32,000 nt of DNA from an uncultured Erysipelotrichaceae bacterium (GCA_942492995.1 OW818653.1:420001-452000); one strand, 5' to 3'; counted from the first letter of the stretch, positions 16,373 through 22,999 are shown. A program made the numbers and translations. The notes: generated by a model not told the origin, from the letters alone.

Positions 16373-17164
16373 ATGAAATATCGAATCAATTTAAGAAAAA
16401 ATGCACAACATACACTTAAAGAATTAATCAAGAGTAATGGCAACCTACTAATAATTCATTATTCATGTGAAAGCTTTTATGATATTCCAAACGGAAGATC
16501 TCCAAGAATTACTTCAATAGCGATTAGATATTTCAAATCAGGACAAACAAAATCATTTTCAATCCATAAAATGGCTGAAATTAATAAAATTAAATTTGAG
16601 GATATTGAAGAGAATTATGATATTTTAGAGAAAAAAATGTTAGATGATTATTTCGAATTTATCAAAATTCATATTGAATATAATTGGGTTCATTGGAATA
16701 TGCGAGATTCAAATTATGGGTTTGAAGCAATTGAATATAGATACACAGTTTTAGGCGGATTTCCAGTTGTAATAAATAATAAAAATAAATTTGATTTAGC
16801 TAATATTTTAATAGATTTGTATGGACCAAAGTATATAAGTCATCCGAGATTAGAGAATTTGATAAAGCTGAATAAAATTTCAACACAGAACTTTTTAAGT
16901 GGTAAAGAAGAAGCTGAGTGTTTTACAAAAAAAGAATTTGTAAAACTTCATCAATCAACTTTGAGAAAAGTTGATATTTTTCAGACATTAATAGACAGAG
17001 AATTAAATAATGAATTAAGAAATTATTCAAAATTTATTGATATTTATGGATTGACTCCACAGAGTGTTTTTCTGTTCATACAAAGTAATTGGTTGGCTAA
17101 TTTGGTCTATTCTATAGTTTTGATTATTCTTGGTGCGTTTATCGGTCAAGCTATAGGATCATAA
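16373..17164 (+). CDS. Hypothetical protein with a single C-terminal transmembrane anchor (cassette gene A)
   Basis: SD GGAG at 16365-16368. 263 aa with no N-terminal signal sequence. The only strongly hydrophobic segment is the extreme C-terminus (LANLVYSIVLIILGAFIGQAIG, about aa 241-262). No family recognised. Confidence 0.6.
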   Translation: MKYRINLRKNAQHTLKELIKSNGNLLIIHYSCESFYDIPNGRSPRITSIAIRYFKSGQTKSFSIHKMAEINKIKFEDIEENYDILEKKMLDDYFEFIKIHIEYNWVHWNMRDSNYGFEAIEYRYTVLGGFPVVINNKNKFDLANILIDLYGPKYISHPRLENLIKLNKISTQNFLSGKEEAECFTKKEFVKLHQSTLRKVDIFQTLIDRELNNELRNYSKFIDIYGLTPQSVFLFIQSNWLANLVYSIVLIILGAFIGQAIGS

Positions 17165-17235: not shown

Positions 17236-19392
17236 ATGAAAATTGATTTACATTGTCATACCAAAAAAGTGAAGTCAGGCGATCCAATTACTAGAAATGT
17301 TAGCAAAGAAATATTTATAGATAAATTATCAGATTCATCTGTGTCTTTTGTAGCAATTACAAATCATAATCATTTCGATATAAGTCAGTATAATGATTTT
17401 TCTAATAATGATAAAGATATAATAATTTTTCCTGGAGTTGAGCTTGATATTGATGGCAAAGAAAGCTCTGGACATTGTTTGTTAATTACTTCTCCTAAAA
17501 ATGTTCATATTTTCAATGAAAACTTATATAGAAAAATAGGTAGTTTTCTACCAGATGATTTCAAAATGGATATTGATGATTTGTTGAATTTTGTTAAATC
17601 TGGTGAATATATAGTAGTGCCACATTATGGTTCAAAGTCACATTCTCTTTGTGAGAATGATATTGACTACATTATTAAGAATATTAGTAAAGTCCCGGTA
17701 TTGCTTGAACCTTCTAACTTAAGAAGTGCTGGAATTATGATTGCACATAATAAATCTACTATTATCGGATCTGATGTTAAAGATTGGACTAAATATAGCG
17801 AATCAAGATTACCTGAAATGAAAATTTTAATTAGTGGATTTGATCATTTATTGAAGCTTTTAAAAAAAGATATACCTACAATTGAAACATTTGTTAAAGG
17901 AAAATTTGCTGAAGAAGTTCATATAAACCCTGTGAAATATCCGGATTGTAATTTAAAGATAAATATCTATAATGACATAAACGTTATTTTTGGCGGTAAA
18001 GGTACAGGTAAGACTGAATTAATTCTAACTTGTATAAAAGACCATTTTGAGAGAAAGGGATATAATGATGTTTCAACATACTTTCCAAATGATAGTGATA
18101 AATTACAGGATTTTGACTCATTAAAAATAAATACACCTAAAGTAAATGATTTATCAAAATTAACAAACAATAATTTATCTAAAGAGTTTTCAATTGTCAA
18201 CGGTCATAAAACTGTTTCAATTACTTCAACATCAGAATATTATAAATGGTTGAATTCAGAAAAGCTCAAAGAAGTAAAATTTGGGTTTGCTAATGCTGTT
18301 TTTAATGTTGCATTAAAAGTATATGAAAAAGAGTATGTGGATGAAAAAGTTCATTACCAAAATACAATCGAAACGAAAAATAAAATGCTAACATTAGTAG
18401 GTGAAAAATATTTAACATCTACAGAAATTGACCAACTTAAATTATTATTAGAGAAAATAGTTAATAATTCTTGGTTAGAATTAGTTAAAGTTACAGCAGA
18501 TTATCATTCATTAATTTTAACAAAATGGAGTATTGAACTTTTTAAGAAGACTTATGTCAATAAAAAAGGAGTACATGTTAAACCTATACAAACTGGGTTT
18601 ATCTCTTTATTTGAAAATTCTTATATGCTTTATAATTCTGCATGCTCAATAAAACTGGCAATGGAAACAAAACCAATATTTGAGAAAACTGCTATAGGTA
18701 ACATAATAGGCAAAGGGGCAATTTATCGAGAAATCGAATATTCGATAAATCCTAGTTCTTATGTTCCTAAATCGACAAAACATATAAATCAGTCAATTAC
18801 TCATCAAGGAATTAAGTTATATTCTTCAAGTATTAATAAAATAGTTCAAAATACATTCTCGGATCTAGAACAAAGTACAATTAATGATTTTAAAACAAGC
18901 TTTAATCAATGGAATATAAACGACTTGTCAGATTTACTTCTCTGTAATACAAGAATTATTGATGAAAACAATATTATATACGATGCTTCTCCTGGTGAGA
19001 AAGCCATGTTGTTATTAAATTATAAATTAATGGATGATACAAAAAATGTTTATATACTTGATGAGCCTGAATCCAAAGTTGGACATAAATATATAAACGA
19101 TGTAATTATTCCACGTCTTTTAGAGTTATCTAGACAAGATAAGAAGATTATACTTACTACACATGATGCAAACATTGCTGTCCGAACACTTCCTCTCACT
19201 TCGATTTATCGTGAGCAATACAGGGTTAATTCAAAAGTTAATTATAGAACATACATTGGTAGTCCATTCCTAGACGAAATGAAATGCTATGAAGAAGATA
19301 TTGAACCTATAGATTGGGTTATAACAAGTATGGAATCTTTAGAAGGGGGAGAAAATGCATTTTTAGAAAGAGGAGAAAATTATGGAAAATAG
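17236..19392 (+). CDS. PHP-domain phosphoesterase fused to an ABC/SMC-like P-loop ATPase (cassette gene B)
   Basis: SD GAGG at 17225-17228. PHP ligand pattern: DLHCHT (H6, H8), AITNHNH (aa 40-46), GVELD (67-71), SGHCLL (78-83), VVPHYGSKSH (127-136), IIGSDVKD (176-183). Walker A GGKGTGKT (aa 253-260). About 325 aa later come the signature-like ASPGEKAML (584-592), Walker B VYILDEPE (605-612) and ILTTHD (H643). Confidence 0.8.
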   Translation: MKIDLHCHTKKVKSGDPITRNVSKEIFIDKLSDSSVSFVAITNHNHFDISQYNDFSNNDKDIIIFPGVELDIDGKESSGHCLLITSPKNVHIFNENLYRKIGSFLPDDFKMDIDDLLNFVKSGEYIVVPHYGSKSHSLCENDIDYIIKNISKVPVLLEPSNLRSAGIMIAHNKSTIIGSDVKDWTKYSESRLPEMKILISGFDHLLKLLKKDIPTIETFVKGKFAEEVHINPVKYPDCNLKINIYNDINVIFGGKGTGKTELILTCIKDHFERKGYNDVSTYFPNDSDKLQDFDSLKINTPKVNDLSKLTNNNLSKEFSIVNGHKTVSITSTSEYYKWLNSEKLKEVKFGFANAVFNVALKVYEKEYVDEKVHYQNTIETKNKMLTLVGEKYLTSTEIDQLKLLLEKIVNNSWLELVKVTADYHSLILTKWSIELFKKTYVNKKGVHVKPIQTGFISLFENSYMLYNSACSIKLAMETKPIFEKTAIGNIIGKGAIYREIEYSINPSSYVPKSTKHINQSITHQGIKLYSSSINKIVQNTFSDLEQSTINDFKTSFNQWNINDLSDLLLCNTRIIDENNIIYDASPGEKAMLLLNYKLMDDTKNVYILDEPESKVGHKYINDVIIPRLLELSRQDKKIILTTHDANIAVRTLPLTSIYREQYRVNSKVNYRTYIGSPFLDEMKCYEEDIEPIDWVITSMESLEGGENAFLERGENYGK

Positions 19393-19687
19393 AGAAATAA
19401 AAGTTTTACTTTGCAAGCAAGAGAATAAAGATTGTTTAATATTTAATATTACAGAAACTGAAAAAATATGTATAGATTTAAATTCTGATGACCAAGCAAA
19501 TCTCAAGAAATTATTTTATGATCTTATTAAAATAATGTTTGATACAAATATTATCTTAGAATTAGACTATGAAGAAGGTTATGATAAAAGTAATATTTTT
19601 GCCAATATAGCTGATGAATATATAAATGCTCTAAAAGCTGAACTTATAACTGTTAGAGGGATACTACCCAAAAAAATTATTGAATAA
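19382..19687 (+). CDS. Small acidic hypothetical protein (cassette gene C)
   Basis: SD AGGAG at 19371-19375, 6 nt before the ATG. Overlaps gene B by 11 nt. 101 aa with 20 D/E versus 13 K/R by my count. No family recognised. Confidence 0.55.
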   Translation: MENREIKVLLCKQENKDCLIFNITETEKICIDLNSDDQANLKKLFYDLIKIMFDTNIILELDYEEGYDKSNIFANIADEYINALKAELITVRGILPKKIIE

Positions 19688-19723
19688 AACAATAAAGTAA
19701 ACTAAGTTTTAAAATATTTAATT

Positions 19724-19914
19724 AATTCATTTCGGATGAGGAATGAACTCATGGATGAGGTTAAAACAAGTAGACAACAAGAAATGAAAGGGGGTATGAA
19801 TATTATGAGTAAAATAGTATTTGCATTGAAGTGTATTAAGTTTAGTGGGTTTAGCATAGGTGTTGCCCCGTTTGGAGTCAACTTTATTGTTGATTCCTCA
19901 TCCGAAGTGAATTA
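19724..19914. repeat. Long-range imperfect inverted repeat (21 nt arms, 149-nt spacer)
   Basis: Left arm AATTCATTTCGGATGAGGAAT (19724-19744). Right arm ATTCCTCATCCGAAGTGAATT (19894-19914). 20 of 21 positions are complementary, and the single mismatch would be a G-U pair in RNA. A second GGATGAGG copy lies at 19754-19761. Confidence 0.85.
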
Positions 19915-19916
19915 GT
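19806..19916 (+). CDS. Unannotated small ORF, 36-aa hydrophobic peptide (MSKIVFALKCIKFSGFSIGVAPFGVNFIVDSSSEVN)
   Basis: Hand-translated; too short for the ORF track. G-rich SD AAAGGGGG at 19788-19795, 10 nt before the ATG at 19806. In-frame upstream ATGs at 19785 and 19797 are also possible starts. Hydrophobic core with a polar/acidic tail. Stop TAG at 19914-19916 lies in the right arm of the inverted repeat. Confidence 0.3.
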
Positions 19917-20004
19917 AATATTGCAATTTTAATTAACTTATTTTATTATATCGAAGGGATTAGATTAACTCCAACAATCATCAAGAAGAATTATGGCAAG
20001 TAAG

Positions 20005-20035: not shown

Positions 20036-20049
20036 CTAGATAACATTCC

Positions 20050-22336: not shown

Positions 22337-22346
22337 AGTTAACATT

Positions 22347-22376
22347 AACCGATAGAAATATCGGTTTTTGTTTATT
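22347..22376 (+). terminator. Rho-independent terminator
   Basis: AACCGATA (22347-22354), loop GAAA, TATCGGTT (22359-22366), then TTTGTTTATTT. Confidence 0.7.
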
Positions 22377-22525
22377 TATAATACATATCATGTATGTGAC
22401 TAAACCTATAATATGCATTATAAAAATAGTTTTCATTATCGTTAGAAATCGATTGTTTATACGAAAAATGTATGATAACTTATAAACATTATATATGTAC
22501 TAAATATTACCGGGGGGTAAAAAAT

Positions 22526-22975
22526 ATGAGTCAACGTGAATCGTATAATGATCACATTAATGGAATACATGAATCATTGGAATTAGGTAAAGAATATGAG
22601 ATGTTAGTAACTAATTCGAGCATGACTCCATTGTTTAATCCATATGATACAAAGATTCGTATAAGTGCTATAAACGCGAAATATAAGTTAAATTATGGGG
22701 CTATTGTATTATACTCTCGTGTCTCACAAAGTGTTTCTATTCGTCGTATTGTACGCGTAGGAAACCACACGATCGATGTAAGAGGTATCTTACAAAGACA
22801 TGTGGAATCGAAGTTACCTAAGAGTGGTGTTATTGGAGTTGTAAGTGCATATACAGTAAACGGGCATTGGGTTAAAACGAATTCAATTGTACATATCGTA
22901 CTTTGTAGTACACTTGTCTTCTATTCTTTCTTCTATCGAATCTATCGAAATTTACTAAAACAAATACAGTATTAA
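22526..22975 (+). CDS. Hypothetical protein, possible S24/S26 (LexA/signal-peptidase-like) fold with a C-terminal TM helix
   Basis: SD GGGGGG at 22512-22517 favours the ATG at 22526 over the ORF-track start at 22472. NSSMTPLF resembles the (G/S)xSMxP nucleophile motif, and GAIVLYSR...SIRRIVRV resembles the GDIIvf...HRIv strand pair. C-terminal helix IVHIVLCSTLVFYSFFY. Confidence 0.35.
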   Translation: MSQRESYNDHINGIHESLELGKEYEMLVTNSSMTPLFNPYDTKIRISAINAKYKLNYGAIVLYSRVSQSVSIRRIVRVGNHTIDVRGILQRHVESKLPKSGVIGVVSAYTVNGHWVKTNSIVHIVLCSTLVFYSFFYRIYRNLLKQIQY

Positions 22976-22999
22976 AAAAAGACAGATTTCTGTCTTTTT
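22974..22999. terminator. Bidirectional rho-independent terminator between convergent genes
   Basis: AAAAAGACAG (22976-22985), loop ATTT, CTGTCTTTTT (22990-22999). A-run on the left and T-run on the right serve both strands. Overlaps the stop codons of both convergent CDSs. Confidence 0.7.

Follow-up and report, generated by a model that had tools for sequence, protein, structure and literature searches.

What does a protein that joins a PHP phosphoesterase to an ABC ATPase do, and does it act alone? The question is raised by gene B, which lies in a 32,000-nucleotide (nt) stretch of DNA from an uncultured Erysipelotrichaceae bacterium (GCA_942492995.1 OW818653.1:420001-452000), referred to here as the window. 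An earlier description made from the DNA alone (the sequence-only reading) had proposed that ATP-gated dimerization controls a PHP nuclease or phosphatase head, with the adjacent genes A and C as partners. We find that the functional unit is two genes, B and C, and that B+C is a self-contained, horizontally mobile two-gene cassette. The balance of the evidence somewhat favors a mobile, Ppl-like defense nuclease encoded by the two genes, in which the small subunit regulates or targets the nuclease.

Gene B Is Widespread and Is Paired with Gene C

A word-indexed search of 5.8 billion proteins returned more than 1000 matches to gene B at E ≤ 0.001. The best 120 are nearly all full-length (about 700–740 amino acids [aa]), with identities of 31–63%, and the closest relative among the matches listed is 63% identical. 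When 1.84 billion cluster representatives were scanned exhaustively with HMMER, 167 representatives of the family at 50% identity were found (E ≤ 1e-30). Relatives occur in Bacillota, Actinomycetota, Bacteroidota, Pseudomonadota, Planctomycetota, Saccharibacteria, and archaea, and their distribution is patchy. For comparison of neighborhoods, we used the best 80 related loci from a scan of one genome per species, in which at least 312 genomes had a gene B relative.

An open reading frame (ORF) of about 95–110 aa overlaps the 3′ end of gene B in 78 of the 80 related genomes and in all five of the other loci examined. The overlap is mostly 14 or 11 nt, and the downstream small proteins align with one another. 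Where the overlapping gene C is missing (two of the 80 loci), gene B is itself interrupted. The same layout was seen on a Photobacterium plasmid, where it adjoins a type II restriction-modification (R-M) system, on a Clostridium plasmid, and on four metagenomic or genomic contigs. An all-versus-all comparison of four genes on each side at 86 loci revealed no other recurrent neighbor, and no fused B-C protein was found among the best 150 representatives, all of which are 746 aa or shorter. Judged by this distribution across genomes, gene C is an obligate partner of gene B.

Genes A, B, and C each encode a protein that is on record, as an exact sequence, on one contig; the cluster of the adjacent Mrp protein has 73 members. 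Six contigs with an identical Mrp protein have DNA that is 88–95% identical to the window from position 20037 rightward, and these contigs lack A, B, and C and carry entirely different genes to the left. The cassette, which lies at the margin of a hypervariable region, is therefore strain-specific. Among the 80 genomes, the genes within two of B+C include those for type I and type II R-M, QatC/QatD, AbiEi/AbiEii, AbiLi/RloB, TIR, GmrSD, STALD, and HipA, and several integrases and transposases. One gene B copy adjoins Pycsar genes and another is near Abi_2. As a raw listing of neighbors, these surroundings support a role in defense but do not decide it.

Degenerate copies were also encountered. 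In three related loci (L011, L017, and L074), an early stop or frameshift breaks the gene B homologue; these cases are either pseudogenes or assembly errors. Plasmids of S. aureus and S. epidermidis carry separate pieces of the family, corresponding to residues 1–279 or residues 582–717 and annotated as hypothetical; these fragments are probably decayed copies.

Gene B Combines a PHP Domain with an ABC ATPase

All ten motifs quoted in the sequence-only reading were found at the residues and nucleotides given for them (Table 1). In an alignment of 65 full-length homologues, 31–63% identical, the PHP columns D4, H6, H8, H44, E69, D71, H80, H130, and D180 are invariant, as are the ATPase columns marked in Table 1 together with P611 and E612. 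Since the proposed catalytic residues are invariant in the 65 homologues, the motifs are real rather than chance matches and are under selection. An AlphaFold2 (AF2) model of gene B, built on this alignment, has a mean predicted local distance difference test (pLDDT) score of 89.2 and a predicted template modeling (pTM) score of 0.72. Foldseek comparison with the PDB cuts the model cleanly in two, into an N-terminal PHP part and an ABC ATPase remainder. Model and Foldseek agree with the architecture that had been proposed, an N-terminal PHP domain followed by a Rad50/SMC/OLD-class ATPase with a helical insertion, and the domain order is, as stated then, the reverse of that in OLD/GajA.

The N terminus matched 3o0f/3e0f (BAD_1165), 2yb1 (Cv1693), 7ug9 (the PHP domain of RNase AM; TMt 0.61), and the PHP domain of Pol III alpha, all with a Foldseek probability of 1.00. 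A profile of residues 1–235 found one match among PDB sequences, the PHP structure 9etk; the match is weak (E = 0.018), and its alignment puts the HxH motif, H44, E69, and H80 of gene B onto the corresponding PHP motifs. Many gene B homologues carry precomputed matches to PF02811; gene B of the window itself has no match to this Pfam family at E ≤ 1. Of the nine metal ligands in the canonical PHP motifs (HxH, H/D, H, E, H, H, and DxH), seven (H6, H8, H44, E69, H80, H130, and D180) are invariant and an eighth, D16, is nearly so. According to the model, the N terminus of gene B has a PHP fold.

In the remainder of the protein, a Pfam AAA_21 match above the cutoff covers residues 581–647 (E = 1.6e-6), and the Foldseek matches comprise RecN, JetC, SMC heads, Rad50, MukB, AriA, and the retron-IA ATPase. 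On the strength of its motifs, the C-terminal part of gene B is an ABC ATPase of the SMC/Rad50-like group, with Walker A, signature, Walker B, and H-loop intact; no Q-loop was identified in it. The stretch between Walker A and the signature had been described as an insertion of about 325 residues, likely to be helical or coiled coil. It is helical as predicted, because the chain is helical over approximately residues 286–476 in the AF2 model, but only this part of the 324 residues forms the insertion and the rest is ABC core, with residues 481–575 returning to the strands and helices of that core. Long helices span residues 360–387, 395–444, and 455–476. The coil is much shorter than those of SMC and Rad50 proteins, its longest helix being about 50 residues, and residues 355–480 are basic (isoelectric point [pI] 8.8).

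Searches of Pfam, NCBIfam, and PADLOC gave no match to a Toprim domain in gene B, whose C terminus consists of the ABC head and an EGG tail. Within this tail W694, L702, E703, G704, G705, A708, R712, and Y716 are invariant across the 65 homologues. The last codons of gene B also hold a 22-nt near-tandem repeat (19335–19356 and 19359–19380), which codes for the duplicated peptide SLEGGEN/FLERGEN in the conserved tail; the second copy contributes the ribosome-binding site of gene C.

Gene C Encodes a Small Acidic Protein

The most interesting feature of B+C is its universal partner of about 100 aa without a recognizable relative, which the sequence-only reading had not singled out. The C family is uniformly acidic, with a median pI of 4.6 and a net charge of −9 (79 sequences), and its conserved residues are F45, D68, E79, Y80, L84, N85, and E87. 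A search with gene C as a single sequence found 3 proteins; a profile search reached 422 clusters, not one of which carries a Pfam domain or is informatively named. The AF2 model of gene C (pLDDT 88.8) has the topology beta-beta-beta-alpha-beta-alpha. Neither the PDB (best E = 0.07) nor the viral models searched (best E = 0.03) yielded a significant match to this fold, and the sequence profile likewise found none in the PDB. Gene C matches no Pfam, NCBIfam, PADLOC, or PHROG family.

Two PADLOC models matched members of the C family weakly: the REase_II model PDLC03430 (42 of 77 members, best E = 1e-5) and the LmuC model (15 of 77, best E = 6e-5). We treat both as leads only; a C-like segment may be present in either model. 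Sequence and fold searches of the PDB with gene C did not return LmuC, and the parallel between the two proteins is an attractive but unconfirmed lead.

B+C Is a Distant Relative of Ppl/TrlF and of PDC-M49

Ppl was reportedly described by Gao et al. in 2020 as a "polymerase/histidinol phosphatase-like" defense gene. It is a validated single-gene PHP+ATPase defense system, which is countered by gp130 of phage Bas63, a protein that resembles the RNA-binding protein Ro60 (PMC11482910). The ATPase of Ppl belongs to the ABC class (10.1101/2024.01.29.577857). One review (PMC12904381) states that E. coli Ppl is a 3′–5′ exonuclease on single-stranded DNA (ssDNA), inhibited by bound nucleoside triphosphates (NTPs) and activated by nucleotide depletion together with 3′-OH ends from phage homing endonucleases. 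This review statement is all that we found on the mechanism of Ppl; our search located no primary paper. By analogy, inhibition by bound NTPs would be of the opposite sign to the simple ATP-gated activation that had been proposed for gene B.

A tblastn search of plasmids with the PHP domain returned annotated TrlF genes in Listeria, E. coli, Klebsiella, Pseudomonas, and Vibrio. TrlF is linked to Ppl because the PADLOC Ppl model recognizes two plasmid TrlF proteins (862 and 880 aa; E = 2e-41 and 2.5e-35); a literature search under the name TrlF found nothing on the protein family. When the gene B family profile was aligned with Listeria TrlF by hhalign, the probability was 99.4% (E = 1.5e-21, 258 columns), and the alignment covered the PHP domain together with the linker that precedes Walker A, with IIGSDV of gene B on IEGSDC of TrlF. 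BLASTP of gene B against Listeria TrlF also aligned the region from the signature to the H-loop; the identity is about 27% and is limited to the PHP domain and the C terminus of the ATPase. The gene B tail, LEGG..AF..R..Y, recurs in TrlF as IMEGGxEAFNRRxEhYNLW. Within the gene B family, 6 of 65 members match the PADLOC Ppl model at E ≤ 1e-5.

Ppl/TrlF proteins share with gene B the PHP subtype (DxHxHT, ITNHNxFD, PGVEL, GH, (A/P)H, and a GSD that lacks the last His), the linker that precedes Walker A, the ABC signature, a DxPE Walker B, a THN/THD H-loop, the EGG..AF..R..Y tail, the domain order, and an occurrence on plasmids and in defense contexts. They differ in length, being 860–950 aa with a much longer coiled-coil insertion, and in standing as single genes: TrlF loci have no C-like gene or domain, whereas B is paired with C. 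One TrlF/Ppl-like gene is a case of a defense gene nested in another system. On the E. coli IncC plasmid pNDM102337 (1999–10026), a gene for an 880-aa protein separates hsdR from hsdS within a type I R-M operon. It has an overlapping gene for a 387-aa "RNA-binding domain" protein that matches PADLOC pAgo and Aga_SIR2 (Class I).

The best PADLOC match of gene B is PDC-M49A (E = 4e-13, residues 2–285 only), the large subunit of a system that PADLOC v2 lists as a phage defense candidate, followed by HEC-02A and AriA; the PDC-M49A model is matched by 59 of the 65 homologues, with a best E of 1e-38. By hhalign, the gene B family profile aligned with Enterococcus PDC-M49A with a probability of 99.6% (E = 2e-23, 432 columns), and the homology runs from the PHP domain through Walker A into part of the helical insertion. 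An Enterococcus plasmid carries a genuine PDC-M49A gene (E = 1e-195) with a gene for the 100-aa PDC-M49B (E = 5e-31) downstream. The layout of PDC-M49 therefore matches that of B+C, with a PHP-ABC ATPase gene and then a gene for a protein of about 100 aa. PDC-M49 differs in that the Enterococcus small gene lies 345 nt away instead of overlapping, and in that neither hidden Markov model (HMM) searches nor hhalign relate the small proteins: PDC-M49B had no match at E ≤ 0.1 in any of 77 C-family members, and gene C aligned with it at a probability of 0.3%, which is no detectable similarity. Either the small partner was acquired independently, or it has diverged so far that the relationship can no longer be recognized. 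From these comparisons, B+C is most aptly placed within a larger Ppl-like group, as a sister family of PDC-M49. A literature search found no experimental support for PDC-M49. On the Enterococcus faecalis plasmid (4995–7319), PDC-M49A is 558 aa and covers positions 1–544 of the 674-position model; this copy, which is widespread in enterococci, may have lost the Walker B half by truncation.

The sequence-only reading had treated the PHP-ATPase fusion as unusual. In fact it is already the defining architecture of Ppl/TrlF, Wukong, and PDC-M49, and as a documented design it is no new principle. In Wukong, a PHP exonuclease at the N terminus is followed by an ATPase at the C terminus; the protein degrades DNA in vitro, and defense depends on both active sites (bioRxiv 10.1101/2024.12.27.630466). 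We liken it to gene B by description only; unlike B+C, it is one protein of about 1026 aa. Lamassu, which has been proposed to derive from SbcCD, contains a small subunit, LmuC, that binds the SMC-like LmuB and helps to recognize DNA ends (PMC12663957). It resembles B+C in pairing an SMC/Rad50-like ABC ATPase with a small accessory subunit, but its effector LmuA is separate, whereas the nuclease of gene B is fused to the ATPase. PADLOC found no match to LmuA or LmuB among the proteins of the window.

OLD/GajA and AriA belong to the same ABC ATPase class and have an inserted helical dimerization region, and gene B matches AriA and GajA weakly in HMM and fold searches. In OLD/GajA proteins, however, the nuclease is a C-terminal Toprim domain, and the Toprim partner of AriA, AriB, is a protein of its own; gene B has a PHP domain at the N terminus and no Toprim. 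SbcCD/Mre11-Rad50, which acts on DNA ends, likewise couples a metal-dependent nuclease to a Rad50-type coiled-coil ABC ATPase. There the nuclease is a calcineurin-like phosphoesterase on its own chain; gene B has a fused PHP domain and a short coil, and is accessory and mobile rather than core.

Proposed Function and Alternatives

Gene B has no full-length match to a characterized nondefense family, and a defense role for it is plausible. In the mechanism that we propose, B and C would be translated together and form a complex. The ATPase heads of gene B would bind nucleotide and dimerize, and the ATPase would sense DNA (probably ends or unusual structures), the nucleotide pool, or both, or some other infection cue. 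The PHP domain would then degrade nucleic acid, most likely as a 3′–5′ exonuclease on phage DNA, as reported for E. coli Ppl. Phage replication would be stopped, possibly at the cost of the cell, and host nucleic acid might be degraded as well. Gene C would serve as a regulatory or specificity subunit that either restrains the nuclease until infection or aids in substrate recognition, as LmuC does in Lamassu.

Several observations weigh against this interpretation. The NCBIfam model NF045780 (TrlF_fam_ATP) scored 81.1 bits against gene B, below its cutoff of 350, and the PADLOC Ppl model (PDLC02208) gave no match to gene B at E ≤ 1. The PHP domain had been credited with a full set of metal-ligand motifs; beyond the invariant and nearly invariant positions given above, the set is not quite complete. 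The canonical D-x-H motif lacks its last His throughout the family (GSDVxDW), as it likewise does in TrlF/Ppl-like proteins (IEGSDCK). The substrate may not be DNA, since the solved PHP folds nearest to the model are those of the exoribonuclease RNase AM and of the pAp/nanoRNA phosphatase 2yb1. Some B+C loci lie amid housekeeping or metabolic genes, such as those for enolase, IMPDH, and TatC. The role assigned to gene C is a guess, because the protein has no similarity to PDC-M49B or to PDB or viral folds, and no C-like segment was found within TrlF. Finally, the suggested defense role of B+C is drawn from homology at 20–30% identity and from context.

Four other explanations were weighed. B+C could be chiefly a toxin–antitoxin (TA)-like addiction module, with B a nuclease toxin, C an acidic antitoxin, and phage protection a side effect. 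Gene C is suitably small and acidic, its start overlaps gene B in a manner consistent with translational coupling, copies of the pair occur on plasmids, and TA and Abi genes are often neighbors; the viral fold matches of gene C include a HicB-like antitoxin, at a nonsignificant E of 0.065. We nevertheless regard an addiction module as unlikely. Gene C comes after the large gene of the pair, lacks a DNA-binding motif, and is matched by no antitoxin family, and each of the validated relatives, Ppl and Wukong, functions from one gene and has no antitoxin. An ATPase with all of its catalytic motifs conserved argues for a regulated sensor rather than a simple toxin, and an addiction module would in any case be compatible with abortive-infection defense. 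Comparably improbable, in our view, is an ATPase-controlled RNase or phosphatase whose PHP domain acts on RNA or small nucleotides (5′-phosphorylated oligoribonucleotides, pAp, or a signaling nucleotide). The best-fitting PHP folds are indeed 7ug9, the Cv1693 amidohydrolase with AMP (2yb1), and the uncharacterized BAD_1165 (3o0f); the sole PDB sequence match of the profile, 9etk, is a PHP-family metal-dependent phosphoesterase; and the resemblance of the Ppl counter gp130 to Ro60 points in the same direction. However, the closest homology is to PHP domains of the Ppl/TrlF type, E. coli Ppl being reported as an ssDNA 3′–5′ exonuclease (PMC12904381) and Wukong as a DNase. The fused ATPase belongs to the DNA-handling SMC/Rad50/RecN group, and the PHP domain of Pol III alpha, a DNA exonuclease in some bacteria, matches about equally well.

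The Foldseek matches to Rad50, RecN, and SMC heads, the proposed descent of Lamassu itself from SbcCD (PMC12663957), and the housekeeping neighbors at some loci would suit a housekeeping complex for DNA end processing or repair, like SbcCD/Mre11-Rad50 with the nuclease fused to the ATPase. Such a complex is very unlikely given that B and C are strain-specific here and absent from conspecific contigs, that even the nearest of the listed relatives is so divergent and the family so patchy across distant phyla, that plasmid copies lie beside R-M systems, and that the flanks are variable and rich in integrases, transposases, and defense genes. Hardly credible at all is a three-gene system of A, B, and C. 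The three genes share a strand, with gaps of 71 nt from A to B and −11 nt from B to C; there is no terminator-like site between A and B on the + strand, and the GC content is similarly low across all three. Yet at 85 related loci the four genes on either side of B include no homologue of A, the upstream genes differ at every locus examined, and gene A is a member of phrog_8766 and its homologues sit alone in the lysogeny module of Streptococcus prophages. Of the two partners proposed originally, C has thus held up and A is rejected.

The Locus and Its Neighbors

The coordinates of the features are collected in Table 1. Genes A, B, and C come after a long polysaccharide-biosynthesis locus and ahead of housekeeping genes. 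The polysaccharide locus, in window 1–20036, includes a flippase, a UDP-GlcNAc 2-epimerase, a UDP-glucose dehydrogenase, and a TupA-like ATP-grasp protein. This part of the window is absent from the six contigs with an identical Mrp protein, and it is a hypervariable locus because those contigs carry different surface-polysaccharide genes or unrelated genes there.

Table 1. Positions of genes, domains, and motifs in the window
Feature	Position (nt)	Strand	Residues	Remarks
Gene A	16373–17164	+	263 aa	C-terminal hydrophobic helix
Gene B	17236–19392	+	718 codons/aa	ATG start; PHP-ABC ATPase fusion protein
PHP domain and linker	17236–17940	+	Gene B 1–235	Ppl-type (ITNHNxFD, PGVELD, GSD without final His)
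Motif DLHCHT			Gene B 4–9	
Motif AITNHNH			Gene B 40–46	
Motif GVELD			Gene B 67–71	
Motif SGHCLL			Gene B 78–83	
Motif VVPHYGSKSH			Gene B 127–136	
Motif IIGSDVKD			Gene B 176–183	
Walker A/P-loop, GGKGTGKT	17992–18015	+	Gene B 253–260	G253, K255, K259 invariant
Helical insertion	18091–18663	+	Gene B 286–476	Long alpha-hairpin; DSSP on AF2 model
ABC signature-like, ASPGEKAML	18985–19011	+	Gene B 584–592	S585, G587, E588 invariant
Walker B, VYILDEPE	19048–19071	+	Gene B 605–612	Catalytic Glu; D609, E610 invariant
H-loop, TTHD	19156–19167	+	Gene B 641–644	T642, H643 invariant
C-terminal tail, W694...LEGG..AF..R...Y	19315–19383	+		Conserved; common to TrlF/Ppl-like proteins
Shine-Dalgarno of gene C, AGGAG	19371–19375	+		Within 3′ end of gene B
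Gene C	19382–19687	+	101 aa	Acidic, pI 4.6, net charge −7; 11-nt overlap with gene B

Gene A matches phrog_8766 from end to end (E = 5e-80) and has homologues, 37–38% identical, in 18 Streptococcus prophages. In Javan528, the one prophage inspected, the homologue lies between a cI-like repressor and the excisionase, on the integrase strand; the other 17 matches are at similar coordinates (about 2.7–3.9 kb, minus strand). The slot between repressor and excisionase in a prophage is a typical place for exclusion or abortive-infection genes. Gene A is probably an independent accessory gene outside B+C, and possibly an independent prophage-type exclusion or abortive-infection gene.

A 33-nt inverted repeat (19716–19748 and 19889–19921) occupies the 412-nt gap between gene C and mrp. 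Its arms are 85% complementary and 140 nt apart, and it lies inside strain-specific DNA because synteny with other strains starts at 20037. It has no Rfam match and could be a remnant of a mobile-element boundary or a structured RNA. A second strain-specific insertion of 658 nt (22338–22995) is absent from the otherwise collinear contigs of related strains; it contains an ORF (22472–22975, + strand) of 167 aa that has no Pfam match. No tRNA gene, Rfam family, or integrase marks an integration site in the window. Promoter-like sites in the window are no more frequent than in shuffled sequence, and we found no convincing operon promoter or terminator.

Implications

B+C as such is absent from the 2023 defense catalogue against which it was tested. 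We propose tentatively, as a claim with slightly less than an even chance of being right, that among the immune nucleases of the Ppl-like PHP-ABC ATPase type B+C makes up a two-component branch that is widespread, with at least 167 clusters at 50% identity in bacteria and archaea, and in which C is an obligate gating or specificity subunit. For annotation, more than 1000 proteins labeled "hypothetical," "histidinol phosphatase," or "AAA family ATPase," together with their neighbors of about 100 aa, could be brought into one candidate defense cassette.

If the mobile, Ppl-like two-gene nuclease is confirmed, it would be a compact two-gene addition to the ABC-ATPase-nuclease defenses that include Ppl, Wukong, Gabija, PARIS, and Lamassu. 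The family would also offer a natural experiment, in which the PHP-ATPase chassis stands alone in Ppl and has a small partner here and, apparently, in PDC-M49. Comparison of Ppl, B+C, and PDC-M49 could show how such nucleases are restrained and triggered, and gene C, if it is the gating or specificity subunit proposed above, would reveal how this class of nuclease is kept off host DNA by means unlike the NTP-only gating reported for Ppl.

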